Below the pieces are notes generated by a model. The model saw nothing but the letters and a program-made list of their open reading frames with translations. It did not search any database and was not told where the DNA came from. From a bacterium (lineage in GTDB: Bacteria; SAR324; NAC60-12), in assembly GCA_965233585.1 (NCBI GenBank), contig CBDDTI010000729.1, forward strand, positions 32,001 through 96,000: DNA of 64,000 bases, written 5' to 3'. Each line of letters opens with the position of its first letter. Position 1 is the first letter of the stretch. Shown here in pieces: positions 5,709 to 30,585 of the stretch. A program made the translations under genes and the position numbers.

Positions 5709-5782
5709 TTTTTTAACTTAGTTTCAATCCATAAAAGGAGAACAAACAAGATTGACAAGGGACTATTTTAGATTAAAAAAAC

Positions 5783-7573
5783 TTACTTTAGCATCTCAAG
5801 TAGTCTCTTCTCATATTCTTTACTACCAGGGAATGGTATCTCAATAGGTTCAGGTCCTTTTAATCCTAACTCTGGATAAAGCACACTAAGCAAATCTTCA
5901 CAGGCAGAGTCTTGTTTAGGATAGTTTTTTTGTAATTCTTGATATTTCCTTTTAAAAGAACCTTTCTTATCCAATTTCAAAATAGTATCCCATAAACCAT
6001 AATATTTGAAAGCTAATTCAATATATTTCCAATATTCTTTATAATAAAAAGTGTTGTTAGCAAAAGCTATCCAAGAGTTAAATTTATAGCCGATTATTTT
6101 TTTACGTTTTGCAGATTCAATAACCTTGATTAAATCTGAATAGTTTTTGAATAAAAATTCTATCAATTCAATAGAGCTTGTATGTGTATAAAAAGTTTCA
6201 AAACCATCTTCATCTTCTTTAATCCACCATTCTAAGCATCTTCGGTTTAAATCATTAGCATATTTAAAAAAGCAGATTGGAATTTTATCTTTTTCATCAG
6301 TTTCTTTGATCTTTTTAAAATCAGAATCGGTGATAATATATCCAACTTGGAGCATCTTCACTATCAAACTATTTGGATAAATATTTTTATTTTCCAATAG
6401 AGCAACTAATGTCGTTTTACCACTTTCAGAACAATTTATATTAAAACCAAGCTGTCTACAAAGAATGATCATGAGTTCCAAAAAATCTCTATCATAACTA
6501 TTTGATAACTCCTCAATCCATCTTATGAATGGATTTTTCACTTTAAATTTTTGTGTAAACATCTTTTTTTCGTCATCATCTAGTGACCAAACATCATCAA
6601 AAATTTCCTCTCTGAAACTCAGATAACTTCTCCTTCCTTCCTTAATATCTTTAATTCTTTCTAAAAGATTAGAGACCCGTTGTTCCTTTTTTCTTTGTCG
6701 TTGTTCTTGAAGTTCTTTTGTTCTTCTTTCTCGCTCTTCCTGAATTTCTTTTTCTCGTTGTTCTTGTTGAGCTAATAATTTCTTTTTTTCCTGTTCATTG
6801 TCGTAATAATACACTTGAAAATCATCTTGAGAGTATTTAAGCTGGTCAAAAGTAACAGATTTCTTTTGCCATTTTTGCCTTAAATCATTGTCTTGATTTA
6901 AAAACCAACTTTTGTAATGACAGATCAGTTTAAAATCTTCAAATTCTTCATCAAATTGAAAGAAAGTTTCATACTTATTGATATATTTAATATCCTTTTG
7001 AAATTGGGATTGTCTTTTAGGATTTAAATTATCTAAAATCCATATTAAATAAATTTGATTTTTTTGGTAGAAATCACACCTTTTTAGAAGATACTCTAAA
7101 GGTAGATGAGACAACTGAATTTCAAAAACTATTCGTTTTCCTTGATATTCACAATAGACATCTGGTTTTCTCTTTTCACCATTGGACATGATGAATTTGT
7201 CATCCACACTAACATTTTTGAACGCTTTATTTTTGAATAAGCTGCCTCCAATTTTATTTTTTAATTCTATATGTCTAGGGCTTTCTTTAGATTCCAAGTG
7301 TCTATCAATACTTTTAATTTTATCTTCTGATAAAGTATCTTTTTTTAGAATACAATCATAAGAATCAGGAAAGTGTTTAAAATGTGGACGAACATTTTCA
7401 CTTACTGCTATATGAAGTGCTTGACCACACTCCAGACAGCTTAACTTAAATTCACCCGTGCCTAGTTTTTTCCTAAAAGAAAAAGTTGATTTACTGGTTT
7501 TAAAGACTTCTTTGGCTTCAATGATTTTTTTAGTGTTCTGTTCCCTAACTCTATTTATCGCTCTTATGTACAT
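5783..7573 (-). CDS. CoiA-like / DUF6035-type protein (Zn-ribbon + PD-(D/E)xK nuclease + coiled coil)
   Basis: CLECG..HFKH..C, ESPRHIELK, KPDVYC..VFEIQLS..YLIWIL. Lies on the opposite strand to its neighbours and is very AT-rich. Confidence 0.7.
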   Translation of the reverse strand: MYIRAINRVREQNTKKIIEAKEVFKTSKSTFSFRKKLGTGEFKLSCLECGQALHIAVSENVRPHFKHFPDSYDCILKKDTLSEDKIKSIDRHLESKESPRHIELKNKIGGSLFKNKAFKNVSVDDKFIMSNGEKRKPDVYCEYQGKRIVFEIQLSHLPLEYLLKRCDFYQKNQIYLIWILDNLNPKRQSQFQKDIKYINKYETFFQFDEEFEDFKLICHYKSWFLNQDNDLRQKWQKKSVTFDQLKYSQDDFQVYYYDNEQEKKKLLAQQEQREKEIQEERERRTKELQEQRQRKKEQRVSNLLERIKDIKEGRRSYLSFREEIFDDVWSLDDDEKKMFTQKFKVKNPFIRWIEELSNSYDRDFLELMIILCRQLGFNINCSESGKTTLVALLENKNIYPNSLIVKMLQVGYIITDSDFKKIKETDEKDKIPICFFKYANDLNRRCLEWWIKEDEDGFETFYTHTSSIELIEFLFKNYSDLIKVIESAKRKKIIGYKFNSWIAFANNTFYYKEYWKYIELAFKYYGLWDTILKLDKKGSFKRKYQELQKNYPKQDSACEDLLSVLYPELGLKGPEPIEIPFPGSKEYEKRLLEMLK

Positions 7574-7684
7574 GAAATAACCCAATTAAAAGAAATTAAA
7601 AATGCGATGATACCCTTTTCCTCTACCCTATTACAATCATACTGTTTGAATGTAATTCGTCCATAATTGGCTCTTCCACTAGAA

Positions 7685-7973
7685 TCAAAAAACCTCAAAA
7701 CATTCAATACCTCCGTTCAGGCTATAAATCTTTGGGTTAGATTTTTCGTAAATAGGGTGGGCAAATTACGGTTCTTTTGGCAAAGGTTTGGAACAAGTTA
7801 AAGCCTCAAAACCAGACTTGATTGTCATTGCAGGTTACAGTGCAAATTGGGCTAAAAAAGTTGCAAAAATTGCCCCCGCTGTGGTGGTTGGAAGAGAAGC
7901 CTCAAAAGATAGTCATTCTTATTACAGGGATTTGCTGAAGCTGATGAAGATTACAAAAAATCTTAGCGGCTGA
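7685..7973 (+). pseudogene. Degraded fragment of another Fe/B12 substrate-binding protein gene
   Basis: GWANYGSFGKGLEQVKASKPDLIVIAG..KIAPAVVV matches the upstream paralogs. Stops and frameshifts lie upstream, there is no start or signal peptide, and the stop is premature. Confidence 0.8.
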
Positions 7974-8080
7974 CACCTGACATTGAACATGTTAGGTTGT
8001 CATTATGTATGTCAAGCATTGTCAATCGGGAGATCAAACTCAAGAACATAGCGAAAGTTAAGTGTCATTGCAAAAACTTC

Positions 8081-8109
8081 TTGACATGATTGTCTGACAA
8101 TACTACACT
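8081..8109 (+). promoter_or_regulatory. Sigma70 promoter with a FadR/GntR-type operator in the spacer
   Basis: TTGACA (8081-8086), 17 bp, TACACT (8104-8109). Perfect palindrome ATTGTC-T-GACAAT at 8089-8101. Confidence 0.75.
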
Positions 8110-8113
8110 GCAT

Positions 8114-8971
8114 CAAATCGTTGATCTGATTAGTTTTTTACTAGCTCAAAACAATGTCTCAACCATTTAATAAAATTCAACGTCATTCAGCAGTTGACTT
8201 TGTGCTAGACCAATTTAAAGAGGCTTTCTTACAAAAGAAAATTTGTTTAAATGAACGGTTGCCAAGTGAAGAAAATTTAGCAGAGACTTTTGGAGTAGGA
8301 CGAAGTACGATTCGCGAAGCACTGCAACATTTGAAAGCATACGGGGTACTTGAAGCTTTTCCAAGTAAAGGCATGCGAGTTGTCTCAGACTTCAGTAGTG
8401 CCTATGGAAAACTTTCTTCTCTCAATCTAGCAATAGACTCTGAGACATTAGTTGATGTGCAACAATACAGGCAAATTATTGAATTAGGCAGTGTTGCTAA
8501 CATCTTGGCAAATATTTCTAGTGAAGATTTCAGCCTACTCCATCAACTCAATGACTCTTTACTAGATGAAAACCAATCTATGGAAACAGCGGCAGACATA
8601 GATTTTAGGTTTCATTATACTTTACTCAAGATTGGACAGAATAAGACAGCCCTTGCGGTCTATGAAAGCATTGCAGAGGTCATTCATCAGTTATTGAAAA
8701 GAGGAAGAAATAGAAGTGCTATTCAAAAAGGACATGGTGAACATCAAAAGATTTTGAATGCCTTGCAAGAAAAAGATTTGACAAAAACCACAGAATATCT
8801 TTTCCAACATTTAGAGGAAGGAATCCATTATCTTAAAAAATCTCAATTCAGAAAAAATCTTTCAGAACAATAGTCGTGTCAGGAATCATTTTAAAATCTG
8901 CAAATCATTGATCTAATCAATTTTTTACTGGCTAAAACAATGTTTCAACCATTTAATAAAATTCAACGTCA
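8114..8971 (+). repeat. Imperfect ~71-bp direct repeats (8114-8185 and 8901-8971) bracketing the regulator
   Basis: caaatc(g/a)ttgatct(g/a)at..ttttttact(a/g)gct(c)aaaacaatgt(c/t)tcaaccatttaataaaattcaacgtca in both copies. Confidence 0.9.
8154..8873 (+). CDS. FadR/GntR family transcriptional regulator
   Basis: RLPSEENLAETFGVGRSTIREAL winged HTH; C-terminal FCD domain DFRFH..N..EHQKILNAL. Confidence 0.92.
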   Translation: MSQPFNKIQRHSAVDFVLDQFKEAFLQKKICLNERLPSEENLAETFGVGRSTIREALQHLKAYGVLEAFPSKGMRVVSDFSSAYGKLSSLNLAIDSETLVDVQQYRQIIELGSVANILANISSEDFSLLHQLNDSLLDENQSMETAADIDFRFHYTLLKIGQNKTALAVYESIAEVIHQLLKRGRNRSAIQKGHGEHQKILNALQEKDLTKTTEYLFQHLEEGIHYLKKSQFRKNLSEQ

Positions 8972-9002
8972 ACTGAATTAGGAACAATAGACTGCCCAAG
9001 TT

Positions 9003-10013
9003 ATGCAATCACTCAAATCTCAAGCGCTAGAACCAACTCAAGCAGAATTGAAACACTTAAGTACTGTTGCAAAGATCATCCGTGTTTTACCGGTTTATGG
9101 TTTACCCATTTTGACTTTGTTCTTGATCTTTTTGTTTTCTATTTTACTTCCTGATACCTTTCCAACGTTGCTCAATCTACGTGCTTTGCTTGCTGATAAA
9201 TCTATCATTGCTTTACTTTCGCTAGCCGCTATGATTCCGATGGTAGCAGGTCGGATTGACTTAACTGTGGGGTATGGTATTGTGCTTTGGCATATTTTGG
9301 CTATCAGCTTACAAACCATGTTGGGATTGCATTGGATTCTTGCGGTTATCGTTGTCATTTTATTAGGAGCCATAGTCGGTTTTTGCAATGGACTACTGGT
9401 GGAAGTGGCTCAAATTGACAGTTTTATTGCTACTTTAGGCACAGGAACTGTGATGTATGCTTTGGCACTTTGGCATACAGGAGGTCGTCAAGTCGTTGGA
9501 ACGTTACCCGATGGATTTTATGCCTTAAGTATCACTTTCATTTTTGGCATACCAATTTTTGCCTTTTATGTGATGGTAATCACTGTTTTGATGTGGGTAG
9601 TTTTCAGTCACTTACCAGTTGGTCGTTACATGTATGCGATTGGTGCGAATCAACGTTCTGCCGAACTCAACGGGATTCCCACTAAAAAATATGTGATTGC
9701 TGCTTTTGTTGCATCTAGTGTCTTAACTGCTTTAACAGGGGTTTTGCTTGCAGCAAAGTTAAGAATTGGTCAAGCCTCAGTTGGGCTAGAATATTTGCTA
9801 CCAGCACTCGTTGGAGCATTTTTAGGCTCAACAACGATCAAACCCGGACGCGTCAACGTCTGGGGAACGATCATTGGTGTCACGATCCTCGCTGTTGGAA
9901 TTTCTGGTATTCAACAATTTGGAGGATCATTTTGGGTTGAACCATTGTTCAATGGTGCAACGTTATTAGTGGCTATTGGAATTGCAGGCTACGCGCAACG
10001 CAAGAAGCGTTAG
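9003..10013 (+). CDS. Sugar ABC transporter permease (RbsC-like)
   Basis: GRIDLTVG, IDSFIATLG, GRYMYAIGAN..AELNGI; multiple TM helices. Confidence 0.93.
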   Translation: MQSLKSQALEPTQAELKHLSTVAKIIRVLPVYGLPILTLFLIFLFSILLPDTFPTLLNLRALLADKSIIALLSLAAMIPMVAGRIDLTVGYGIVLWHILAISLQTMLGLHWILAVIVVILLGAIVGFCNGLLVEVAQIDSFIATLGTGTVMYALALWHTGGRQVVGTLPDGFYALSITFIFGIPIFAFYVMVITVLMWVVFSHLPVGRYMYAIGANQRSAELNGIPTKKYVIAAFVASSVLTALTGVLLAAKLRIGQASVGLEYLLPALVGAFLGSTTIKPGRVNVWGTIIGVTILAVGISGIQQFGGSFWVEPLFNGATLLVAIGIAGYAQRKKR

Positions 10014-19444: not shown

Positions 19445-19757
19445 CCCATCAACCAGAATCTATCCGTAGAGTAAACTCTAATGAATATGAAAAGTTCATG
19501 TCATGGTCTCTTGTCCAAACTCCTCCAACTTCTACAAGGTTCATCAACTTTGACGTTTTGAATGGTGTCAATCAAAATTTGCTCCTCCCGCCCCATATCT
19601 TCAAAGGAATGTAACTTAAAAGAATTGGTATTTTTCGGCTAAATTATTGTCCAGACACGGTGCTTAACTTTTGGCATGGAACCGATAATAATTGCATGTT
19701 CACACTTAAGGCTTTAGACTAATTCGGTTAATTGAGTGATTGAAATTTGGTGAATTG

Positions 19758-21020
19758 ATGCAAATTGCTGTTTTAGGTTCGGGAATTAGTGGACTGGGTG
19801 CGTCTTATTTTTTAAGCAAGCAACATACTGTAGATTTGTACGAAAAAGAGAATCGTCTGGGGGGGCATGCACGAACAACGATTGTAGAAGAAAGCAGCAG
19901 AAACTTTGGCATAGACACAGGATTTTTAGTTTTCAACCATCACACGTATCCATTACTGACAAGATTTTTTGAGGAACTAGGTGTTGCGATTGAAAATAGC
20001 GACATGAGCTTTAGCTTCCATGACAAAACCAAGAACATCGCCTACAACGGCAAATCTATCAGTGATGTTTTCTTTCAAAGGAGTAATCTTTTTTCTTTTG
20101 ACCATTGGAGAATGGTCAGGGATATTCTCAAGTTCAATCAGGCTGCCAATCATCATTTACAGTCTGAAAGTATTGAATTAAATCAGAGCTTGGGGCAGTA
20201 CCTTGCCAAGTATTCAAAATCCTTTCAATACAAATACATTTTGCCAATGGGTGCAGCCATTTGGAGTACTCCCATTGAGAAAATGATGGATTTCCCTGCT
20301 GAAACATTCCTAAAATTTTTCAAAAATCACGGCTTGTTGGGTGTCAATACACAACATCAGTGGCTGACCGTTTCTGGTGGTTCAAAAAATTATGTAGAAA
20401 AAGTGACTCCTCATATTTCTGGAAAGATTGTGAAGAATAGCCAGATTGTCAAAATCAGGAGGAAGGACTCACAACATCAAGGGGCAGAACTCATTGACAA
20501 AAATGGAAATTTTTCAGTTTATGATAAGGTTGTGCTAGCGATGCACGCCCCTGATGCCTTGCAGATGCTAGAAAAACCAACTGCCCTAGAACAAGAGATA
20601 CTGGAATGCTTTCAATACACACAAAACCAAGCGACGCTGCATTGTGATGAAAGTGTGTTATATCCTGACCAAAGGTTTTATTCTGCTTGGAATTACACAA
20701 CTGATGGTCAAAACGATGTTGTCAAATTGACCTATTGGATCAATGCCTTGCAAAATTTGAAAACTAAACAAAACTACTTTGTCTCACTCAATGAACAAAC
20801 CCCGTTGAGAAACGTCATAGAAGTTGTTCAATATGAACACCCCTTATTTGACCAAAAAGCTATTCAGGCTCAAAAACGTTACGAAGAAATCAATGGAAAA
20901 AACCACACATACTTTGCAGGAGCTTATTGGAAAAACGGATTCCATGAAGACGGTTTGTTCTCTGCAAATCAAGTGGCATTAGCAATGGATTGTGGCTGGC
21001 TTGACATGGCTACTCCATGA
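19758..21020 (+). CDS. FAD-dependent oxidoreductase (amine oxidase-like; UfaD-like fatty acid desaturase)
   Basis: IAVLGSGISGL, RLGGHA, IDTGFLVFN..YP, AIWST, FAGAYW..GFHEDG. Confidence 0.9.
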   Translation: MQIAVLGSGISGLGASYFLSKQHTVDLYEKENRLGGHARTTIVEESSRNFGIDTGFLVFNHHTYPLLTRFFEELGVAIENSDMSFSFHDKTKNIAYNGKSISDVFFQRSNLFSFDHWRMVRDILKFNQAANHHLQSESIELNQSLGQYLAKYSKSFQYKYILPMGAAIWSTPIEKMMDFPAETFLKFFKNHGLLGVNTQHQWLTVSGGSKNYVEKVTPHISGKIVKNSQIVKIRRKDSQHQGAELIDKNGNFSVYDKVVLAMHAPDALQMLEKPTALEQEILECFQYTQNQATLHCDESVLYPDQRFYSAWNYTTDGQNDVVKLTYWINALQNLKTKQNYFVSLNEQTPLRNVIEVVQYEHPLFDQKAIQAQKRYEEINGKNHTYFAGAYWKNGFHEDGLFSANQVALAMDCGWLDMATP

Positions 21021-21760
21021 ATCATAGATATTTGACTGGAAAGGTGTATCACAGACGTTTTTTGCCCAAAAAGCATTTTTTTCAGTATCAATTTTTTATG
21101 ATTGATATTGACCTCAAACATTTTTCAAGTTTGAAAAGCCGTTTTTTTGGAATCAATACTAAAAATATTTTCTCATTTCAGACCAAAGACCATTTTGGAA
21201 AAAGTCCTATTTTCTTAGAAAATGTCAAAGATTTATTGGAAAAGTTAGAACTCAAATTTTATGATGACATGAGATTCATTACTTTACCAAGAATCTTTCA
21301 TTTTGTTTTTAATCCCATTAGCTTACTTCTTGCTTTGGACCATCTTCAAAAACCCGTGTATTTGGTGGCTGAAGTTCACAACTACAATGGCGGTCGCGTA
21401 CTGTACCCCGTCATGCTACAACATCAAAAGAATGACCTCTACAAAGGAATAATTCCCAAAAGTATGTATGTTTCTCCTTTTTTTGATCATAGTGGGAATT
21501 ATCAATTTTTAGTCCGATACAATCAATCAGGACTAAACTGTCAAGTGAGTTTATTTCACGACCAGCAAAAAATGCTAGATGCTGTTTTTAATGGTCAAAG
21601 TTTACCCTTCGGTTGCAAGAATACATTAAAGCTATTTAGTCAATATACTTTCACCACTTTTTTAATCGTTATAAGGACTGTATGGCAGACTGTTTTATTA
21701 AAAATGAAGGGTCTCAGGTGGTATTCTCCTTTAGAAAGTGATCAAAAAAAACAATATTAA
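21017..21760 (+). CDS. DUF1365 family protein
   Basis: GKVYHRRFLPKKHFF.Y, PRIFHFVFNPIS, AEVHN, K.MYVSPF. Confidence 0.9.
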   Translation: MNHRYLTGKVYHRRFLPKKHFFQYQFFMIDIDLKHFSSLKSRFFGINTKNIFSFQTKDHFGKSPIFLENVKDLLEKLELKFYDDMRFITLPRIFHFVFNPISLLLALDHLQKPVYLVAEVHNYNGGRVLYPVMLQHQKNDLYKGIIPKSMYVSPFFDHSGNYQFLVRYNQSGLNCQVSLFHDQQKMLDAVFNGQSLPFGCKNTLKLFSQYTFTTFLIVIRTVWQTVLLKMKGLRWYSPLESDQKKQY

Positions 21761-21776
21761 TGACGTAGTTAATTCA

Positions 21777-23024
21777 ATGAAATTACAAAAGCATCAAAAC
21801 CAGTTACAAGGTTTTTGGAACAAGATAGGACATTATTTTTTTTCTAAAATCCAACAAGGTCATTTGCAAGTAACTTATGACAACGGTACAACATTTAACT
21901 ATGGAAACAGAAACGAACCATCTAGCCATCTTCATTTAAAAAATCACAAAATTTTTAAAAAGTTGTTTTTGTATGGTGATATTGGTTTTGCAGAAAGTTA
22001 TATGGACAATGACTTTGAAGTTGATGACCTGACTAAACTCATTGAAATCGCCTTGATTAACACAGAATATTTACACACACTCAGCGAATATGAAAAATTA
22101 AGTAGCCTCTACAATCTTGTTCCATACTTCAATCGTCTACGTCATAAACTTCATAAAAATTCTAAAAAATTAGCTAAAAGAAATATCAGCCAACATTATG
22201 ATTTATCTAATCACTTTTTTTCTCTCATGTTAGATAAAACGATGATGTACTCCAGTGCTGTTTTTCAATCTAAAACAGACTCACTTGAGGAGGCACAACG
22301 TTATAAAATCAAGAAGTTAGCAGAAAAACTTAATATCAATTCTAAAAGTAAAGTGTTGGAGATTGGGTCAGGCTGGGGTGCTATGTCAAGTTATTTGGCT
22401 CAAGAGATCGGTTGCGAGGTGGTCTCTTTGACTCTTTCTGAAGAACAAAAAAAATACTGTGATGAGCAAATCAAAAAGGAAAGTATAGACAACTTGACTA
22501 TCCTTGTTAAAGATTATAGAGACATGCAAGGAAAGTTTGATGCCATTTTAGCAGTGGAAATGTTTGAGGCAGTCGGCAAAGAATACTTTCATCAGTTTTT
22601 TAAAAAATGTGAGCAATTACTTGTCAAAAGCGGTGTGATGGTGTTACAAGTGATCACCGTACCCGACCAACGTTATGAATGCTACCAAAAAGACAGTGAT
22701 TTTATCAGAAAGTATATTTTCCCCGGGGGACATTTACCCAGCTTAAAAAGTTTGTTAAAAGTCACACACGACCACACTCGTTTTAATTTACTCGGATTGG
22801 AAGATTTTACAGAACACTATGCCAAAACATTACAGATTTGGAAAAGGAACTTTAATGAAAAAATAGACAAAGTAATAGATTTAGATTTTGATGACTACTT
22901 CATTAGAATGTGGAATATGTATTTAAGTTATTGTCAAGCAGGTTTTTTAACACGAAACATTAATTTGTTACAAGTTGTCTTTACTAGAGACCAAAATATG
23001 TCTCTTAATCAAGGATTGCTATGA
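21777..23024 (+). CDS. cfa: Cyclopropane-fatty-acyl-phospholipid synthase family methyltransferase
   Basis: IGFAESYM, NISQHYDLSN.FF, MMYSSA, VLEIGSGWG, DFIRKYIFPGG, HYAKTL, RMW..YLSYC. Alternative GTG start at 21738. Confidence 0.9.
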   Translation: MKLQKHQNQLQGFWNKIGHYFFSKIQQGHLQVTYDNGTTFNYGNRNEPSSHLHLKNHKIFKKLFLYGDIGFAESYMDNDFEVDDLTKLIEIALINTEYLHTLSEYEKLSSLYNLVPYFNRLRHKLHKNSKKLAKRNISQHYDLSNHFFSLMLDKTMMYSSAVFQSKTDSLEEAQRYKIKKLAEKLNINSKSKVLEIGSGWGAMSSYLAQEIGCEVVSLTLSEEQKKYCDEQIKKESIDNLTILVKDYRDMQGKFDAILAVEMFEAVGKEYFHQFFKKCEQLLVKSGVMVLQVITVPDQRYECYQKDSDFIRKYIFPGGHLPSLKSLLKVTHDHTRFNLLGLEDFTEHYAKTLQIWKRNFNEKIDKVIDLDFDDYFIRMWNMYLSYCQAGFLTRNINLLQVVFTRDQNMSLNQGLL

Positions 23025-23107
23025 ACTTGGAAAATGCAAATTTTATTACTATCTTTTAAAGCATCGTTTTTTATTTTTTTCATTGTTAACATGAGCAGGT
23101 TGTAGTT

Positions 23108-23578
23108 ATGAATATTGAAGATTTCCAAGGTGTCCAACCAGAATTTATTCCCCAAACTTTCTTTGATGGAGAGCTTGACGTTTATGGATTAGTCAAAGAT
23201 TGGAAGGGAGACGTGATTAGAAGTTTTCAAGGTCAGATGAAAGGAAGCTGGAATGACGAAGGAACAGGAACTTTGTCAGAAACTTTTGTCTTTGATGATG
23301 GAGAGAACCAAAATAGAACTTGGACGCTCAAACCAGTTGATTCTAAAACATTTATTGCGACTGCAAATGACGTGATTGGAGAAGGATCTTTTATTACAAG
23401 GGGCAACACGATGTTTGGTCAATATACTTTGCAAATTGCCTATGGCAACTCTCCTCTTAACATTGATGTCCAAGATTGGCTTCATTTGCAAAACGATAAT
23501 GTTGTTTTGAATCATGCTAGAATGAAAAAATTTGGCATTACTGTTGGTTCACTCATCACAACTATTATCAAGAAATAG
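23108..23578 (+). CDS. DUF3833 family protein (lipoprotein signal upstream appears disrupted)
   Basis: FFDG...YGLVKD, GTLSETFVFDDGE...RTW, TANDVIG, DWL, KFGI.VG. Confidence 0.8.
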   Translation: MNIEDFQGVQPEFIPQTFFDGELDVYGLVKDWKGDVIRSFQGQMKGSWNDEGTGTLSETFVFDDGENQNRTWTLKPVDSKTFIATANDVIGEGSFITRGNTMFGQYTLQIAYGNSPLNIDVQDWLHLQNDNVVLNHARMKKFGITVGSLITTIIKK

Positions 23579-23873: not shown

Positions 23874-24662
23874 ATGGAAGTCTTTATGAGGTTCTTAGTT
23901 CAGACTAAAGCAATCATTGTGAGTGTAGTGTTAATAGGGAGTTTTTCTGCCTATGCTCAAGAAGACGAAATTGGAACAACCCGCGTTGACATCACTTATG
24001 ATGTTGCTAATGCTTTCAGGATTCAAGATGTTGGGTTAAACAAGGAATCGGAGGGACAAATACGTGACCAGCAAGGATTTGGACTGGAATTTACTCAAGT
24101 TTTTGGGAAGTACATTGGGGTGAATTTGGGTTGGTCAAGTTATCATTATTCGGGTTCTATTTTTGACCAAGCGACTGTCAATTTTGAAGCCACTGAAGGC
24201 GGTGGAACTAAGGTCACAAGTAATGCGACAAATGTTGAATACAAAATGGACGTGAAAGCCTCTGTTGCTCGTGCTGGACTATCTTTGAATATCGAAGGAA
24301 AACGTGGAGAAGCTCACATTCCTTTTTTGTATATTTTGGAAGGCGGTTTTATGCGGGCAGAAACGACTGGTCAACTTGAGCTATTGACCAAAGCATCAAG
24401 CACCCCATTTGCAAAAATCAACTTCAAACAAGAACCAAATGCAAATTACTGGCGTTTTGGATTCTTGCTTGGATTTACTGATGGAATGCACTTCACTTTC
24501 GGATCTAAATCCCAAAATCTCTTGGCACTTGAGCTGGAAAGCTGTGATGCAAAACGAATTGGTGAAGACGCTTGTGATACCATTGACAATTCACTGAAAA
24601 ACAGAAAACAGGAATACAAACCTTTGGAGTCCATTATGTTAGGTTTAGGAGTGAATTGGTAA
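23874..24662 (+). CDS. Hypothetical outer-membrane beta-barrel-like protein
   Basis: Signal peptide ending AYA, amphipathic beta-strand pattern, C-terminal MLGLGVNW. Confidence 0.65.
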   Translation: MEVFMRFLVQTKAIIVSVVLIGSFSAYAQEDEIGTTRVDITYDVANAFRIQDVGLNKESEGQIRDQQGFGLEFTQVFGKYIGVNLGWSSYHYSGSIFDQATVNFEATEGGGTKVTSNATNVEYKMDVKASVARAGLSLNIEGKRGEAHIPFLYILEGGFMRAETTGQLELLTKASSTPFAKINFKQEPNANYWRFGFLLGFTDGMHFTFGSKSQNLLALELESCDAKRIGEDACDTIDNSLKNRKQEYKPLESIMLGLGVNW

Positions 24663-24822
24663 GGTTTTGTCTGTTTATTAGTTTTAAATGTAGAAGCCTC
24701 AAATTAGTTTAATATCCCATCAAATAACTACTGCTGCAGTAGTAGAGCAGTGAAATTGAATCAATTTTTTTGAATGATTTATGGGTTTGGTACAATTCTT
24801 TTGAAATTTTTGAAAAAATCGC

Positions 24823-24850
24823 TTGACTTCAGAAGTCAGTTTGATATGAT
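24823..24850 (+). promoter_or_regulatory. Putative promoter with overlapping palindromic operator
   Basis: TTGACT (24823-28), 16 bp, TATGAT (24845-50). TGACTTC-A-GAAGTCA inverted repeat at 24824-24838. Confidence 0.55.
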
Positions 24851-24876
24851 TCATGTGTTTCTAATAGTTACTCTTG

Positions 24877-25919
24877 ATGAAAGGCATGATGAAAACAGAT
24901 TTATTAGAATTAAACCTGACAAATGCTCAAAAAAGTCTTTTATTTGAGATTTTTGAAAAAATTGAATACCCCAAAACTTGTTACAGAACCTACCTAAACC
25001 AATTACAAGACCTGCTAAATCGTTTAGACTTTATGTTCAAGGATTTGTTTGAAAACAAGTCTTTATCAAGAGGATACCAGAAATACGGTTTAGTCAAGAT
25101 TACAAATCTTCCCCAAGATCAAATTGACTTAAAAGCTCCTAAAAACGGAAGCGATTTGAAACTTATCCCCAAAAAAACATATATATCTGAGAATGTACTA
25201 ACATTTTTCTCATTGATTTTTGGAAGACCTTACTCAGTACAAGCAGAAGGACAAGGTTTAATCAATAATTTGATACCTAAACAATCGAGTCATACTAGCC
25301 TTACTGGGATAGGATCAAAAAATGAACTTGGTTGGCATATTGAAAATACAGCATTACAATATGCTACAAAGTCTAATTGTTCTCCCCAATATCTTACCAT
25401 GATAGGCGTTACACAAGACCCTGCCCCCCCCCCCCCCAAACAAAGTTTGCAGATGCTAGAAAAGCTATCAGTTTATTGAAACAAAGTGACATTGATCTTT
25501 TGTCAAAACCTTTGTTTCAATTTAGACTCCCTTATCGTTGGAGAAGTCAGGAAAGATATATGAATTATCAAAGCAAACATGCTCCTATTCTCAAACTTGA
25601 AAATCATTCACTTTGTGTCAATGGAGCATTTTATGGCGACATGTTAGTTCAAGAAAATATCACCTCCAAAGAAAAAGAATCTGTTAAACATCTGATTGAA
25701 GCATTGAACGAAGTGAGTATTTCAGAGGTGATTGAACCCGGTACAATGATTTGTATAGACAATCGTGTCATACTCCATTCAAGAACAGCATTTAATGCAA
25801 CCTTTGACCAAGAAGGCAATCCTTCTCGTTGGGTTCAAAGACTTTTTCTTACTGAAAATCTTGCATCCTTTCAAGATTGGGATCAAACAGACGATAATGT
25901 TTACAAGTTCAACTTCTGA
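24877..25919 (+). pseudogene. Clavaminate synthase/TauD-like Fe(II)/2-oxoglutarate dioxygenase, frameshifted at a poly-C tract (possibly phase-variable)
   Basis: The N-half has LGWHIEN (HxE); the C-half has IDNRVILHSRTAF and RWVQR. The halves are in different frames and meet at the C14 run. Confidence 0.85.
25424..25437 (+). repeat. C14 homopolymer (simple-sequence repeat)
   Basis: gaccctg-CCCCCCCCCCCCCC-aaacaaag in a very AT-rich gene. Confidence 0.95.
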
Positions 25920-27027
25920 CACAAGCCATATCAGATGGCAGGTTTATTTTCTGATCTTATCCAGTTCGTTGTTTCAAGGAGGCATTAGTCTTTATTCACT
26001 TTATTTAAGCGGAGAAGGATTATCTGACTATGATGTTTCTCTACATTATTCTATTTTTGGATTAGGTGGGATTCTAGGAAGCGTTTCTGGTGGAATTTTA
26101 GGTGAATACTATACAGCTAAAAAGATTTCTCTAATACTTAATTCTTTATTGATGATTGCTGTATCAGGTTTATTTTATTACGAGCCATTTTCTTTCTTTT
26201 CTTTTTTGATTGGTTATGGAATCACTACCAATAGATCCAATATACTCAATTATTTTTCAACAATTCAATGTCAAAAATTAGCAGAAAAAGCATTATCTTG
26301 GAGAAGATTTTTATTGAACTTAGGTGTTGCAGTTGGAGCATGGTTTGTAGGCTTTTTGCTTAAATTAGATAGTTTATACTTTTTATTATTTTGTGCTGTA
26401 ATTGCGATCATCAATTTAGTGATTTCCATCTTACTACCTCCATTAGCCAATCATGTTTCTCAAAACATAGATTCCATTCAAAAACAAGGATACAAACAAT
26501 TTTGGTTATTATGCTTAATTTTTGTATTGGCGTTATTTCCATTTGCTTTGATTCCTAATTTATACCTATTGCATTTACAAAGTGAAACAAACTTCATGCA
26601 CCCTTCTACTGCAGGAACCATATTTTTAGTGAATGGGGTGATCATTATTTTATTACAAGTTCCTATCATCAGGTTACTGGAAAATATAGCTTCCAAATGG
26701 AAGTGTAGTTTGGGAGTGTTATTGATTGGATTAGGTGTGGGAAGTGTTGCAATGACCCAAAATCAATTACAACTTTATTCAGGGGTCTTTCTTTGGACTC
26801 TTGGTGAGATCATTTTATTTGTTCCTTTTTTAACATTCTTTCTAAAGAGTTCTCCTTTTTCAAAGGGCAAAACAATCAGTATTTATCAGCTTTGTTTTGC
26901 TTTTTCTGATTTTGTCTATCCTTTAATTGCAGCACAAATGATTTTAGTTTCTAAATTTTACTTGTGGATTCTTGTGATATGTCTTTCTATTTTTTCAAGT
27001 ATTTTTTCATTTAAACTCATCAAGTAA
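25897..27027 (+). CDS. MFS transporter (probable exporter)
   Basis: About 12 hydrophobic segments; GGILGE, NLGVAVG, NGVIIILLQVP, LWTLGEII. ATG at 25897 overlaps the dioxygenase end. Confidence 0.85.
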   Translation: MFTSSTSDTSHIRWQVYFLILSSSLFQGGISLYSLYLSGEGLSDYDVSLHYSIFGLGGILGSVSGGILGEYYTAKKISLILNSLLMIAVSGLFYYEPFSFFSFLIGYGITTNRSNILNYFSTIQCQKLAEKALSWRRFLLNLGVAVGAWFVGFLLKLDSLYFLLFCAVIAIINLVISILLPPLANHVSQNIDSIQKQGYKQFWLLCLIFVLALFPFALIPNLYLLHLQSETNFMHPSTAGTIFLVNGVIIILLQVPIIRLLENIASKWKCSLGVLLIGLGVGSVAMTQNQLQLYSGVFLWTLGEIILFVPFLTFFLKSSPFSKGKTISIYQLCFAFSDFVYPLIAAQMILVSKFYLWILVICLSIFSSIFSFKLIK

Positions 27028-27039
27028 TTTTTTATCAAC

Positions 27040-28233
27040 ATGAAACTGTTCTTTATGACAACTGCAACTAAGCTTAATATGTACTCTCATCACACTTTAG
27101 ATATTGCTAAGACGTTTCAGCCGATTGCTATTTTACCTCAAGGACATCAAAAACTAGTCAATGCTGAAACATCTGCTATCTTTTCTAAAATGATTGAATT
27201 TGGTGAAAATTGTACAATGAACGAACAATTCAAAAAGCATTATCAACATAAAGAAGAAACTAGAATCATCTCAATGTCTGAAGAAATGTTGTTAGAAATT
27301 GCAAAGCTTAGAGATGAGTTTGATCTACCCGGAATGAGATACCAAGAGACCTTACTTTTTAGGGATAAATATGAAATGAAAAGGCACCTTAATCAATATG
27401 AAATTCCTATGTCTTCTTTTTTAGAATATGACAAAATGAAGGATTTTCAATACTATGAAAGTCATTTGAAATGTCCCTTTATTCTCAAACCAAGAGACGC
27501 TTTTGGTGCAGAAGGGTTTTATAAAATTAACAACAAAAAAATATACAATGAAGTCAAGCACCTACTACGTAACTGTGCTAAGGAATACATGGCTGAAAGC
27601 TTCATTGAGGGAGAATTATTTCACTGCGAAAGTATTGTACAAAATGGAGAAATTATTTTTTCTCAAGTTGGTCAATGCTCCACTCCTGCTGCAAATTTTC
27701 AAAAGTTAGAACCGATGTTTTATTCTTTTGTGAAAAATGAAGAAGACATTGCTATTAGAATCAAAACACTCAATCAAGATGTTTTGAAAGTGATGCCTTT
27801 ACTAAACGGAGTGACACATCATGAAGTTTTTGTGAAACCTGATGGAAATATTGTGTTTTTAGAGATTGCAGCTAGAACACCTGGCGCATTACTTGTTCCT
27901 CAATACCAAAAAAAGTTTGGCATCAATTTACTAGATATTTCTTTTTTACAACAAATGGACATAGAATTTAATTTACAACTCAATGAAAGCAAAACCTATG
28001 TTGCAACAGGACAATTTCCTTTGGGAAAAGGAGTTGTCAAAAAGTTAAACTATCCCAGTAACCTTAACTCAAAGTTTCATTTCCAACATAGAATCCAAAA
28101 AAACGATCAACTACATGGAGCCAAACAACTGCGAGATATTGCAGCAGATATTATCTTAGAAAATGAGAGTGAACCTGCACTTAAACAAGACATGCTATAC
28201 CTTTCTCAATTTGATGTTTGTGAATTTTACTGA
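27040..28233 (+). CDS. ATP-grasp domain protein (L-amino acid ligase-like)
   Basis: FRDKYEMK, PFILKPRDAFGAEG, AESFIEG, GVTHHEVF, FLEIAARTPG. Confidence 0.88.
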   Translation: MKLFFMTTATKLNMYSHHTLDIAKTFQPIAILPQGHQKLVNAETSAIFSKMIEFGENCTMNEQFKKHYQHKEETRIISMSEEMLLEIAKLRDEFDLPGMRYQETLLFRDKYEMKRHLNQYEIPMSSFLEYDKMKDFQYYESHLKCPFILKPRDAFGAEGFYKINNKKIYNEVKHLLRNCAKEYMAESFIEGELFHCESIVQNGEIIFSQVGQCSTPAANFQKLEPMFYSFVKNEEDIAIRIKTLNQDVLKVMPLLNGVTHHEVFVKPDGNIVFLEIAARTPGALLVPQYQKKFGINLLDISFLQQMDIEFNLQLNESKTYVATGQFPLGKGVVKKLNYPSNLNSKFHFQHRIQKNDQLHGAKQLRDIAADIILENESEPALKQDMLYLSQFDVCEFY

Positions 28234-28276
28234 ATTTATCTTGTTGTTAGAGCCAATCTACTGATAATGGTATTGA

Positions 28277-28606
28277 CTACTTTTTACAAAATTCCATGAT
28301 GAGTTCATCAGGTGAGCGATAGTTGCAGTCGTATTTGTTCATTTCTGCTGCGCCGCAATAATATGTGCCATCACTCAAATTGGCAGAGGCAAACACAGGA
28401 GGTTGCTGGACAGAGTCTAAAATTTTGACCTTCCCTGATTGAATCATAAAACTAGTTTTCCCCCAACGCAGTGCAATACGGCAGAGTTTCACAACTTCTG
28501 AATAAGACTGACCCGGGTACAACAATACGGGGCTAGATTGAGAGCAATTATTGATAATAAATATGCAAATCCACAGCAGGATATTCCGACAATTAAAGCA
28601 ACTCAT
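28277..28606 (-). CDS. Small Cys-rich hypothetical protein, possibly exported
   Basis: 109-aa portion of ORF 28277..28732 from ATG 28606; hydrophobic N-terminal stretch followed by C; fills the gap after the prs-like gene. Confidence 0.4.
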   Translation of the reverse strand: MSCFNCRNILLWICIFIINNCSQSSPVLLYPGQSYSEVVKLCRIALRWGKTSFMIQSGKVKILDSVQQPPVFASANLSDGTYYCGAAEMNKYDCNYRSPDELIMEFCKK

Positions 28607-29816
28607 ATTGAAAGGATTGAGTATGACCCTGTCTTCTTGGATTTTTTGATGAAATGTCAACATCATATAAATTTTTGACATTGATGACGCTTTGCTTTCC
28701 GTAAATCTCTCTTGGGTCTTGTTGATTTTCAATACACTGAATCACAGCATCAGCAATCCATTTTTCAATTTTAAGAACCACTGTTTTTTTGCGCAATCTA
28801 CCTTGGTCATCGCGGTTGAGGATATTGGGAATAGTATTTGTCGTGATGAATTGATTCAAACCTTTGGCATTGAGATTTGACCTTCCTTCACTAGAAATGT
28901 AGGTATGAGTGCAATAGAAAAAGATATTAGCAGGCTGAGCTTCTTCTATTAAAAGCTGGACTACTGCTGAAATTGTGACCCCTGTGCGTATCATGTCATC
29001 AAGAATAAAAACGTCTTTTCCCCGAAGTTGTTGGAGGTCATTGCTAGCATTGATTTCCACATCACGTTGCCCATACCTTGTCTTATCCATATTGACTAGG
29101 ACTGAACGATGTAAATTGGTGAACTCTCTCACACGGCTGACAAAATCCACTGCTCCATTGTCAGGCGCTACAAAGCCAATATGTCTGCCTGAATCTTTGA
29201 CATTTGCAAGCCCTGAAGTCAGGATATAGTTGGCAATGATGTGAGCGATGTCCAAATTCATAAATGGGGGTAATTCTTCAAAAAGTTGGGACTCAAAAAC
29301 ATCTTGATAGATCTCTGCCATGACGGCAGGTTTGTGATTGTGAACCGTCATCACCATATCTACACCTGATTCTTTTAAAAGTCTGGCATACAAAAATGCA
29401 GAACAAGGTTGCCCTGCAAATTTTTTGATTGATTTGAAGTCTGTCACTTGTGGATGATTTGTTTTTTGCACACCTCTATCTTGTGCAGAATAAAACAAAT
29501 CTGGCTCAATCAAAATGACATTGTCAGCACCATTTTCTTTTGCGGCTGATGCAATCAAAAAGTTACGTGTTGCTAATTCGTTGCGTGTGTAGTGAGGCGA
29601 GGAAGTGGAAATGATATAAACAGTTTTACCTTTTAACTGTTGACCGATATTTTCTTCTGTGATTTCTCCATAGATGAATCGTGGGCAAAATTCCGTATTT
29701 TTAAAGCTCTTGAGCGAGACTAAATCAAGAATGTCTTCAGCTTGTTGGGCATGGTGAGCCACACCGATTGCAAAAGACGCATCTCCCACATTAGACACAA
29801 CAATTATTTTTTTCAT
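28593..29816 (-). CDS. Ribose-phosphate pyrophosphokinase (PRPP synthetase) family protein, atypically long
   Basis: SFKNTEF, YSAQDR, MTVHNH, VAPDNGA, DKTR, PRPP-binding FILDDMIRTG, CTH, ITTNTIP. Start 29816 avoids overlap with the upstream gene. Confidence 0.8.
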   Translation of the reverse strand: MKKIIVVSNVGDASFAIGVAHHAQQAEDILDLVSLKSFKNTEFCPRFIYGEITEENIGQQLKGKTVYIISTSSPHYTRNELATRNFLIASAAKENGADNVILIEPDLFYSAQDRGVQKTNHPQVTDFKSIKKFAGQPCSAFLYARLLKESGVDMVMTVHNHKPAVMAEIYQDVFESQLFEELPPFMNLDIAHIIANYILTSGLANVKDSGRHIGFVAPDNGAVDFVSRVREFTNLHRSVLVNMDKTRYGQRDVEINASNDLQQLRGKDVFILDDMIRTGVTISAVVQLLIEEAQPANIFFYCTHTYISSEGRSNLNAKGLNQFITTNTIPNILNRDDQGRLRKKTVVLKIEKWIADAVIQCIENQQDPREIYGKQSVINVKNLYDVDISSKNPRRQGHTQSFQYELL

Positions 29817-29832
29817 AAGCGATGATTTTGGT

Positions 29833-30585
29833 TTATTTGATGGCAATAACTCTAATTCTTTGGTAGTCAGCAAACCACTTTCCATTAATGAAACACTGGG
29901 GTTTTAACTTTTGCTGAACCTCATCTTGAATCTCCTCCCTATCTTGAACAAGGACTCCTTCAAAAAAATGTTGGGCAAACATTGAAAGCCAATCTTTGAT
30001 CCCATTCTCTTTGTCTTGTAATTCTGTGGGTCTTTCAAAATGTTGGGCAAAAATCACTTTGAACCCAACTTTTTCAAGCTCTGTTGTGTATTGAGCAATG
30101 GAAGGGAAGTACCATAAATTCAGTTGCGATTGCTTTTGGTAACCTTTGGCAAGCAACGATTTTCTTAACTGATTCAAAATGGCTTCTATGTTGCCCTTTC
30201 CCCCAAATTCAAAGACAATCCTACCTCCTTTTTTTAAATGACGATAAGCACATCTGATGGGGCTTTGATAGTCAGTGACCCAATGAAGAACGGCATTAGA
30301 AAAAATGGCATCAAAGGGGTCTTCAAAATGAAAATGAGTGGCATCTGCAACTTGAAATTGAATTTTTTGATGTTTTGACTTGGCATTTGCAATCATCTCC
30401 GTTGATTGATCAATGCCTATCACCTCATGGCAAAGTTGACTGATTTCAAACGTTAGTTGACCAGAACCACAACCTAAATCTAAAATTTTCTCATGTTTCT
30501 GTGGGTTAAGAAGTTTGATCAAATCTTCACCATACTGATACACAAAAGAATGTTTATCGTTATAAAGTTCAGTATTCCATTTCAT
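29833..30585 (-). CDS. Class I SAM-dependent methyltransferase (Tam-like)
   Basis: ILDLGCGSG, GIDQS.EMI, FDAIFSNAVLHW, FEFGGKGN, WFADYQRIR. Confidence 0.9.
   Translation of the reverse strand: MKWNTELYNDKHSFVYQYGEDLIKLLNPQKHEKILDLGCGSGQLTFEISQLCHEVIGIDQSTEMIANAKSKHQKIQFQVADATHFHFEDPFDAIFSNAVLHWVTDYQSPIRCAYRHLKKGGRIVFEFGGKGNIEAILNQLRKSLLAKGYQKQSQLNLWYFPSIAQYTTELEKVGFKVIFAQHFERPTELQDKENGIKDWLSMFAQHFFEGVLVQDREEIQDEVQQKLKPQCFINGKWFADYQRIRVIAIK

Follow-up and report, generated by a model that had tools for sequence, protein, structure and literature searches.

A C14 tract breaks the hydroxylase gene of an L-amino-acid-ligase-type cassette in a SAR324 bacterium

One of the described operons close to the locus analyzed here is the Hil operon of Pantoea ananatis, which encodes the amino-acid dioxygenases HilA and HilB, the PF13535 ligase HilD and the PF07690 major facilitator superfamily (MFS) transporter HilE; the accessible parts of the article propose, by analogy to bacilysin, the synthesis and export of a dipeptide antibiotic, a product that is itself only proposed (PMC3684760). 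The literature on simple sequence repeats (SSR), as far as its sources are accessible, deals with surface and restriction genes of pathogens and includes a general survey of prokaryotic homopolymeric tracts (PMC2831843), and the accessible part of a report on glpK of Mycobacterium tuberculosis describes a metabolic enzyme that is switchable by a homopolymer (bioRxiv 10.1101/717272). A literature search with sources available in part returned no SSR switch in a small-molecule biosynthetic cassette. Here, we analyzed a cassette of three genes at positions 24823..28233 of a 64,000-nucleotide stretch of DNA from a bacterium of the SAR324 lineage (contig CBDDTI010000729.1 of assembly GCA_965233585.1; the whole stretch is called the window in the following). 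The cassette encodes an Fe(II)/2-oxoglutarate (2OG) type hydroxylase, an MFS transporter and an ATP-grasp enzyme, and the reading frame of the hydroxylase is broken at a run of 14 cytosines (C14).

The hydroxylase gene and its poly-C tract

The tract is located at positions 25424-25437 of the plus strand and is read in frame as GCC CCC CCC CCC CCC. Two plus-strand open reading frames (ORFs), 24874-25479 in frame 1 and 25377-25919 in frame 0, overlap at this position. The gain of one C or the loss of two or five C joins both ORFs, which means that C15, C12 and C9 are in frame and C14 is out of frame; in the C14 state the first frame ends with ...QDPAPPPPKQSLQMLEKLSVY at a stop codon at 25477-25479. 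As assembled, the hydroxylase gene does not form a single uninterrupted ORF, and the frameshift coincides with C14. The tract has the layout of a contingency locus, as it lies inside an ORF, its length sets the frame and one third of the possible lengths are in frame.

A homopolymer count revealed that C14 is the sole C or G run longer than 8 in the 64-kb window. Runs of at least 6 are limited to nine of C and three of G, with a C8 (41888), a C7 (42499) and a G7 (19859) as runners-up. An order-1 estimate based on the C content of the window and its C-after-C frequency predicts 1.6e-5 C or G runs of at least 14 in 64 kb. In addition, CCC accounts for 20.5% of the 707 proline codons in the window (GCC for 21.5% of the alanine codons), and none of the 23 Pro-Pro pairs in the other genes of the window is encoded by CCC-CCC. 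Because of this low expectation, the minor role of CCC among the proline codons and the lack of CCC-CCC pairs, we regard the tract as non-random.

Both sides of the tract belong to one enzyme. The N-terminal half (24886..25437, plus strand) is clavaminate-synthase-like and contains the HxE motif as GWHIEN; its ORF opens with a TTG at 24874, and ATG codons are present at 24877, 24886 and 24889. The C-terminal half (25438..25919, plus strand) starts with QTKFADAR, is encoded in the other frame and contains the distal histidine in ILHSRT as well as the motif RWVQR. The C-terminal half matches the Pfam family TauD/TfdA (PF02668) with 35.7 bits at a cutoff of 27, covering profile positions 126-266 of 267. 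The N-terminal half alone has no Pfam match and shares weak NCBIfam matches with the C-terminal half, namely to GntD (7.9e-5), CS1 and VioC, all of them far below cutoff.

A search of 1.84 billion representative proteins with the C-terminal half yielded 183 relatives at E <=0.001. Full-length relatives have 344-362 aa and their match to the C-terminal half begins at residue 183-192, which corresponds to the length of the N-terminal half. When both halves were joined by an X, local alignments to 14 full-length relatives ran unbroken across the junction, and in a single gene of Rahnella the match to the N-terminal half ends at base 7498 and the match to the C-terminal half begins at base 7499. 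Addition of the window sequence to an alignment of 40 relatives showed that 13 of 13 invariant and 15 of 18 nearly invariant columns are kept. Two of the three misses, the start methionine and a threonine beside the tract that is present in the C-terminal half, are artefacts of aligning fragments, and the third one is an exchange of Ala to Ser.

The His and Glu of GWHIEN and the His of ILHSRT occupy the columns H160, E162 and H301, which are invariant in the 40 relatives, and complete the triad that we take to bind iron as in the solved structures. GWHIEN aligns to LTWHTED of OrfP, and ILHSRT aligns to VHGRT and THART of AsnO and CAS1. RWVQR contains the invariant R318 and R322 and aligns to RWLQR of AsnO and to its counterpart in CAS1; this Arg pair behind the distal His presumably binds 2OG and the carboxylate of the substrate. 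Apart from the frameshift, the alignment to the relatives contains no other stop or gap. Judged by sequence, the hydroxylase gene is therefore otherwise intact and broken once, at C14. A first-pass annotation, made from the letters of this DNA, had described a C run without equal in the window, which is in frame as C9, C12 or C15, and HxE...H...R motifs without any other lesion; the run lengths, the frames 1 and 0, the gapless junction and the conserved columns bear this out.

The best solved relatives of this dioxygenase family are AsnO, KDO1, VioC, OrfP, NapI, CmnC and clavaminate synthase, which act on free amino acids or amino-acid-like substrates. Overall identity of the window hydroxylase to its best full-length relatives is 40-45%. 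For one of them, P0020 (42%), a structural model with a predicted local distance difference test score (pLDDT) of 92.4 and a predicted template modeling score (pTM) of 0.92 was compared with solved structures in place of the window protein. The best matches of this relative were AsnO (E 1e-22, template modeling (TM) score 0.76-0.78), KDO1 (0.78) and VioC (0.75). The model of P0020 has the double-stranded beta-helix fold known from AsnO and VioC.

The tract sits on a conserved Ala/Asn-Pro-Pro loop of the family. At this site the closest relatives read ..TEAPPQTK.., ..TSNPPYTK.. and ..DANPPYTR.., and the window reads DPAPP(PP)-QTK. A C9 tract would give the family loop DPAPPQTK exactly, C12 would add one and C15 two prolines. 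Using a simple sequence pattern, we located the loop in 41 of 153 relatives, in which it is 6-8 residues long, and the loops made from C9, C12 and C15 would fall into this range with 6, 7 and 8 residues. In the model of P0020 the two prolines at 190-191 are part of a turn between the strands 178-185 and 193-197. Since the tract is absent in the relatives inspected at this site, all of which are at most 51% identical, and since codon usage does not favor such a run, the sequence comparison shows that the tract has expanded specifically in this lineage, at an Ala-Pro-Pro-Gln turn that is conserved in the family.

Transporter, ligase and their occurrence elsewhere

The second gene (25897..27027, plus strand) encodes an MFS transporter of 376 aa, which matches Pfam MFS_1 over the full length of the profile (positions 4-345 of 347; 63.6 bits at a cutoff of 33.4). 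Its start codon, the ATG at 25897, is backed by the database gene call P0168 (376 aa), and its orthologues have 374-379 aa. The third gene (27040..28233, plus strand) encodes an ATP-grasp enzyme of 397 aa, for which the database gene call starts five codons later (392 aa). It matches PF13535 (ATP-grasp_4) with 42.5 bits at a cutoff of 27, and a comparison of its sequence with solved structures ranks RizA first (4wd3, E 4.2e-19), followed by 4dim, BL00235 (3vot) and BacD. A structural model of the enzyme (pLDDT 91.1, pTM 0.88) leads to the same group of proteins: the Foldseek ranks 1-6 are taken by RizA (TM score 0.80), BL00235 (0.75-0.77) and YwfE/BacD (0.75), and fold matches to PurK, PurT and biotin carboxylase rank below the ligases (0.65-0.69 for PurK and biotin carboxylase). 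None of the NCBIfam equivalog cutoffs was reached (35 of 840 for DdaF, 18.5 of 850 for BacD and 25.7 of 248 for PylC). Therefore, sequence and model assign the gene to the L-amino-acid-ligase type and to no named ligase. The matches to TauD, MFS_1 and ATP-grasp_4 agree with the three gene identities given in the first-pass annotation.

The three genes are tightly linked, as had been noted before: the ATG of the MFS gene at 25897 lies 23 nt before the stop codon of the hydroxylase gene and overlaps with its end, and the ATG of the ATP-grasp gene at 27040 follows 12 nt after the MFS stop codon. The GC content of the cassette is 32.7% and that of the window 38.5%. About 35 nt upstream of the first ATG codons we found a sigma-70-like promoter candidate (24823..24850, plus strand) with the sequence TTGACT-16 nt-TATGAT, an extended -10 TG and 10 of 12 matches; a promoter scan of this region did not rise above shuffled sequences (24 sites vs 19.4 +/- 4.0). 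The perfect 6-1-6 palindrome GACTTCaGAAGTC (24825..24837) overlaps the -35 hexamer and the spacer of this candidate. Thus, the palindrome and the promoter candidate proposed at first are present, but the analysis does not support a function of the palindrome as operator, because such palindromes are common (27 perfect ones in the window, with about 16 expected) and no second perfect copy of this one was found.

Further modes of control were considered and rejected. The best upstream match to a Fur box (11 of 19) is at background level, and a riboswitch or leader RNA is not indicated, as there was no Rfam match at gathering score and the two snoRNA-like matches (E 0.18-0.27) are at chance level. 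There was no clear signal of a genomic island either, as the cassette (0.30-0.35) and the left flank (0.31-0.39) are similar in GC content. A GC-containing palindromic, terminator-like hairpin (24727..24745) separates the cassette from the upstream gene (23874-24662) and is probably where the transcription unit of the latter ends.

Homologues of the ligase are rare, with 14 matches among 5.8 billion protein clusters. The nearest ones are 71% (on a contig of size 19966), 54% (58818), 53% (2435403) and 35% (79154) identical, and MFS homologues at 68, 54 and 55% are encoded on contigs of exactly the sizes 19966, 58818 and 2435403. As the contig sizes match exactly, we take the MFS and ligase orthologues to co-occur on three other contigs. 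In a phylogenetic tree, the clade of the window ligase has a support of 99/97. Results for the hydroxylase were different: a word-indexed search with the N-terminal half among proteins of at least 330 aa found three proteins only (37-44%), which are encoded on other contigs (6038, 1381 and 24931), and an exhaustive search with the C-terminal half found nothing between the 119-aa piece of the window itself and 51% identity. An intact orthologue of about 65% on the contig of size 19966 should have surfaced in these searches, which implies that the gene is absent there, split or cut by the contig end.

The synteny elsewhere that the first-pass annotation had called for was found in part. In Vibrio campbellii, 16 nt separate an MFS gene (33% identity) from the ligase gene (31%) behind it, and the order dioxygenase, MFS and ATP-grasp recurs on plasmids of Rahnella and Pantoea; the Vibrio pair lacks a dioxygenase. 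A scan with the ligase alignment of a collection of genome contigs, which includes neither the genome of the window nor the 53-71% orthologues, added distant relatives only (26-32%), without homologues of the window dioxygenase or MFS beside them. Taken together, the dioxygenase-MFS-ligase architecture is recurrent. In the lineage of the window, the MFS-ligase pair looks like a conserved core and the hydroxylase like an accessory add-on, since the searches returned close orthologues of the MFS and the ligase but no intact one of the hydroxylase.

The Vibrio locus (4160-10008) has some additional features. A divergent gene for a siderophore-interacting ferric reductase (SIP) and a LysR regulator gene are located upstream of the MFS-ligase pair and a convergent gene for an S9 prolyl oligopeptidase downstream of it, and within the upstream spacer of 700 nt Fur-box-like matches reach 13 of 19 at best. 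This setting gives a faint hint of a metal-related role of the pair.

The distant ATP-grasp relatives (26-32%), which stem from Neisseriaceae, Legionella, Burkholderiales and Midichloriaceae, form a clade of their own (20 rows, support 95/98). A PAS_4 protein or a PAS histidine kinase adjoins the ATP-grasp gene or is fused to it in 12 of the 13 scanned loci (L002, L003, L005-L011, L013, L014 and L016, with fusions in L006 and L013). L012 is the exception, and L001, L004 and L015 were outside the scan. The combination looks like a ligase-plus-sensor module, of which a literature search returned no published description.

Explanations for the frameshift

The gene content suggests an operon that tailors an amino acid, ligates it and exports the product. 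The hydroxylase would convert a free amino acid to a hydroxy-amino acid, the ligase would use ATP to couple it with a second amino acid, and the MFS transporter is predicted to export the product, a direction of transport that we likewise assume. The first-pass annotation had arrived at the same logic of hydroxylase, L-amino-acid ligase and pump, which fits the relationship of the ligase to RizA, BL00235 and BacD, that of the hydroxylase to AsnO and VioC, the gene order on the Rahnella and Pantoea plasmids and the analogy to the Hil operon.

Slipped-strand mispairing makes runs of 12-15 C mechanically unstable, and a population with such a run should therefore be mixed in tract length. For this reason we rank first the explanation that the tract is real, lineage-specific and hypermutable, that it lies in an accessory tailoring gene and that it is OFF in this assembly, and we give this explanation an even chance. 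The codons of the Ala-Pro-Pro-Gln loop would have been expanded by slippage to about 14 C, and the population would be a mix of tract lengths, of which every third is in frame. C12 and C15 would add one or two prolines to a surface loop, which is within the length variation of the family, and such in-frame forms may be active. C14 would be the OFF state with a product of 198 aa from the ATG at 24886 (201 aa from the TTG at 24874), which is predicted to be inactive because it is without the distal His and the Arg pair. With the hydroxylase OFF, ligase and pump may make and export an unmodified product, or nothing. In the OFF state 417 nt before the MFS start would be left untranslated, and expression of the MFS and ligase genes may fall by polarity.

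A more far-reaching scenario is a switch that has evolved for its adaptive value. In this scenario a poly-C switch would toggle the tailoring, and perhaps the output, of an exported peptide in an uncultured, apparently free-living bacterium, and clones would hedge between a hydroxylated, a plain and no product. We consider this quite unlikely, and the comparison with relatives has somewhat weakened it.

Several points speak against the hypermutable tract and an evolved switch. The first-pass annotation had looked to orthologues for a preserved homopolymer, and in the relatives inspected, with their limit of 51% identity, the tract is not kept. None of the 41 relatives with a located loop has three or more prolines there, the only four runs of at least three prolines among the 153 relatives are all far from the tract site, and the DNA of two relatives reads GGG CCG CAG ACC at this site without a homopolymer in either case. 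C or G runs of at least 9 are absent from all 19 fetched loci. Contingency tracts are usually conserved among strains and located in the 5' part of the gene, and the window tract lies mid-gene, at about codon 180 of 350. The argument from the loop position uses the relative P0020, which is 42% identical, and not the window protein itself, and as the assembly gives C14 as a single length, the length heterogeneity is a prediction and the true tract length may differ. The co-occurrence on three contigs follows from equal contig sizes, with adjacency not seen, and no dioxygenase is encoded within 7 kb of the Vibrio MFS-ligase pair. Finally, the searches found intact hydroxylases only up to 51% identity, whereas MFS and ligase orthologues reach 68-71%, which would fit a dispensable hydroxylase gene in decay. 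Together with the absence of the tract in relatives, this missing close orthologue speaks for an event that is recent, specific to the lineage and located in a dispensable gene.

The intactness of the remaining hydroxylase gene fits a miscounted homopolymer, a very recent inactivation or a switch alike. In the case of a miscount, the true tract would be C15 (or C12), the hydroxylase would be intact and the frameshift would be an error of assembly or base calling. It is in line with this that the frameshift falls exactly on the sole run of the window longer than 8 nt in a gene without any other lesion, and on several sequencing platforms the most frequent error is to call one base too few in a long homopolymer. 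We know of no platform that is reliable for homopolymers of 14, and an under-call of C15 is plausible. On the other hand, 64 other homopolymers of 7-8 nt are located inside ORFs that remain open, which indicates that homopolymers in general are not a weak point of this assembly, even if none of these runs comes near 14 nt. Furthermore, a tract of at least 12 C would still be hypermutable, and a miscount would alter the current state of the tract and not the mechanism. Overall, we regard a miscount as possible and rather doubtful.

It is also conceivable that the hydroxylase is a fresh pseudogene, an unused accessory gene that was inactivated by slippage at a pre-existing short C run while the MFS-ligase pair works alone; the tract would then be a mark of decay instead of a switch. 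The missing close orthologue of the hydroxylase next to neighbors with orthologues at 68-71%, the Vibrio pair without a dioxygenase and the absence of the tract in all inspected relatives would be expected in this case, and the window contains a second broken gene, a DpnII-like endonuclease gene that is split by a 70-bp duplication. However, the inactivation would have to be very recent, as 1 kb of sequence shows no further lesion and 13 of 13 invariant residues are kept. To reach C14 from the equivalent of C9, the run would have had to slip several times, yet no other part of the gene has changed, and the overlap between MFS start and hydroxylase stop that a working operon would show is still present. 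These points make a pseudogene unlikely in our view. We assign a far lower probability, close to negligible, to recoding, in which transcriptional slippage or a -1 ribosomal slip at C14 would yield a steady low level of full-length hydroxylase and the tract would act as a fixed attenuator. RNA polymerase can slip on such homopolymers, as can tRNA-Pro on consecutive CCC codons, but transcriptional slippage in bacteria is documented mostly at A or T runs, and we found neither a stimulatory structure nor a relative with the same arrangement. Among these explanations, the hypermutable tract in its OFF state is the one that we prefer.

Genomic surroundings and comparison with known systems

The genes around the cassette were inspected as well. 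The DpnII-like restriction endonuclease gene at 35-965 of the window is split into the ORFs 35-661 and 540-965 by a perfect 70-bp tandem duplication at 588-727 (2.0 copies, 100% match) and is followed by a gene for an adenine DNA methyltransferase (967-1920); the endonuclease could in principle revert by the loss of one repeat copy. Closer to the cassette, a common block of genes (19740-23578) encodes an amine-oxidase-like flavoprotein, a DUF1365 protein, a cyclopropane-fatty-acyl-phospholipid synthase and a DUF3833 protein, and the gene directly before the cassette (23874-24662) encodes a protein of 262 aa without family match. Downstream, 359 nt (28234-28592) without a convincing ORF separate the cassette from a convergent gene on the minus strand (28593-29885), which encodes a ribose-phosphate-diphosphokinase-like protein of 430 aa (NCBIfam score 107.5 at a cutoff of 113). 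At this downstream border, the GC content changes from about 0.32 to about 0.39.

If the tract varies and the in-frame forms are active, the cassette would be a case in which a tailoring enzyme for a natural product is switched in a stochastic and heritable way. Contingency loci would then extend from surface antigens and restriction systems to secreted chemistry, and the cassette, with its three genes, would be a very small system in which to look for a new hydroxy-amino-acid dipeptide. If the frameshift is due to a miscount or to decay, the locus would be an ordinary frameshift in an uncharacterised, conventional L-amino-acid-ligase cassette. Either way, the rare MFS-ligase pair, found on 4 contigs among 5.8 billion clusters and in Vibrio, is a target for product discovery.

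In comparison with contingency loci, i.e., those of Neisseria, Campylobacter, Helicobacter and Bordetella and glpK of M. tuberculosis, the window likewise has a poly-C or poly-G tract inside an ORF with one third of the lengths in frame. Variation of those tracts has been shown in reads or isolates, and strains usually share them, whereas the window tract is absent from all relatives seen. Within the family of AsnO, VioC, OrfP, KDO1, CmnC and CAS, the hydroxylase halves align to the HxE, His and Arg motifs of OrfP, AsnO and CAS1. They differ from the solved beta-hydroxylases of free amino acids by an identity of about 20%, by scores far under the cutoffs of the NCBIfam equivalogs and by the frameshift.

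The bacilysin and RizA-type pathways (BacD/YwfE with the exporter BacE, RizA and BL00235) have, like the window, a stand-alone ATP-grasp ligase beside an MFS transporter. However, the identity of the window ligase to RizA, BL00235 and BacD is only 14-19% in structural alignments and, unlike the bacilysin pathway, the cassette contains no anticapsin-type genes. A larger cluster with a regulator is present on plasmids of Rahnella sikkimica (locus L018, 6953-13231) and Pantoea alfalfae (locus L019, 5953-12232), where genes for a TetR regulator, a dioxygenase, an MFS transporter, three ATP-grasp proteins and an aminotransferase follow one another in this order; the Rahnella cluster additionally carries an NtaA/DmoA monooxygenase gene. 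The dioxygenase of both plasmids is homologous to the two halves of the window hydroxylase (29% and 36% identity) in one contiguous gene without a homopolymer at the equivalent site. Their MFS transporters have no detectable similarity to the window MFS, and the ATP-grasp genes are weakly similar (21-22% over short stretches) and form the outgroup in the tree. The plasmid locus is probably a small peptide-like natural-product cluster. A literature search found no paper on it, and a publication on Pantoea PNP-1, which we considered as a possible description, deals with a different cluster.

The described system that comes close in its logic is the Hil operon. Its dioxygenases belong to PF13640 and PF10014 and differ from the TauD/CAS-like hydroxylase of the window, and the accessible parts of the article make no mention of a homopolymer (PMC3684760). 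According to the same parts of that source, it follows the logic of the window, with one or more hydroxylases for free amino acids, a PF13535 ligase and a PF07690 MFS transporter combined in one operon.

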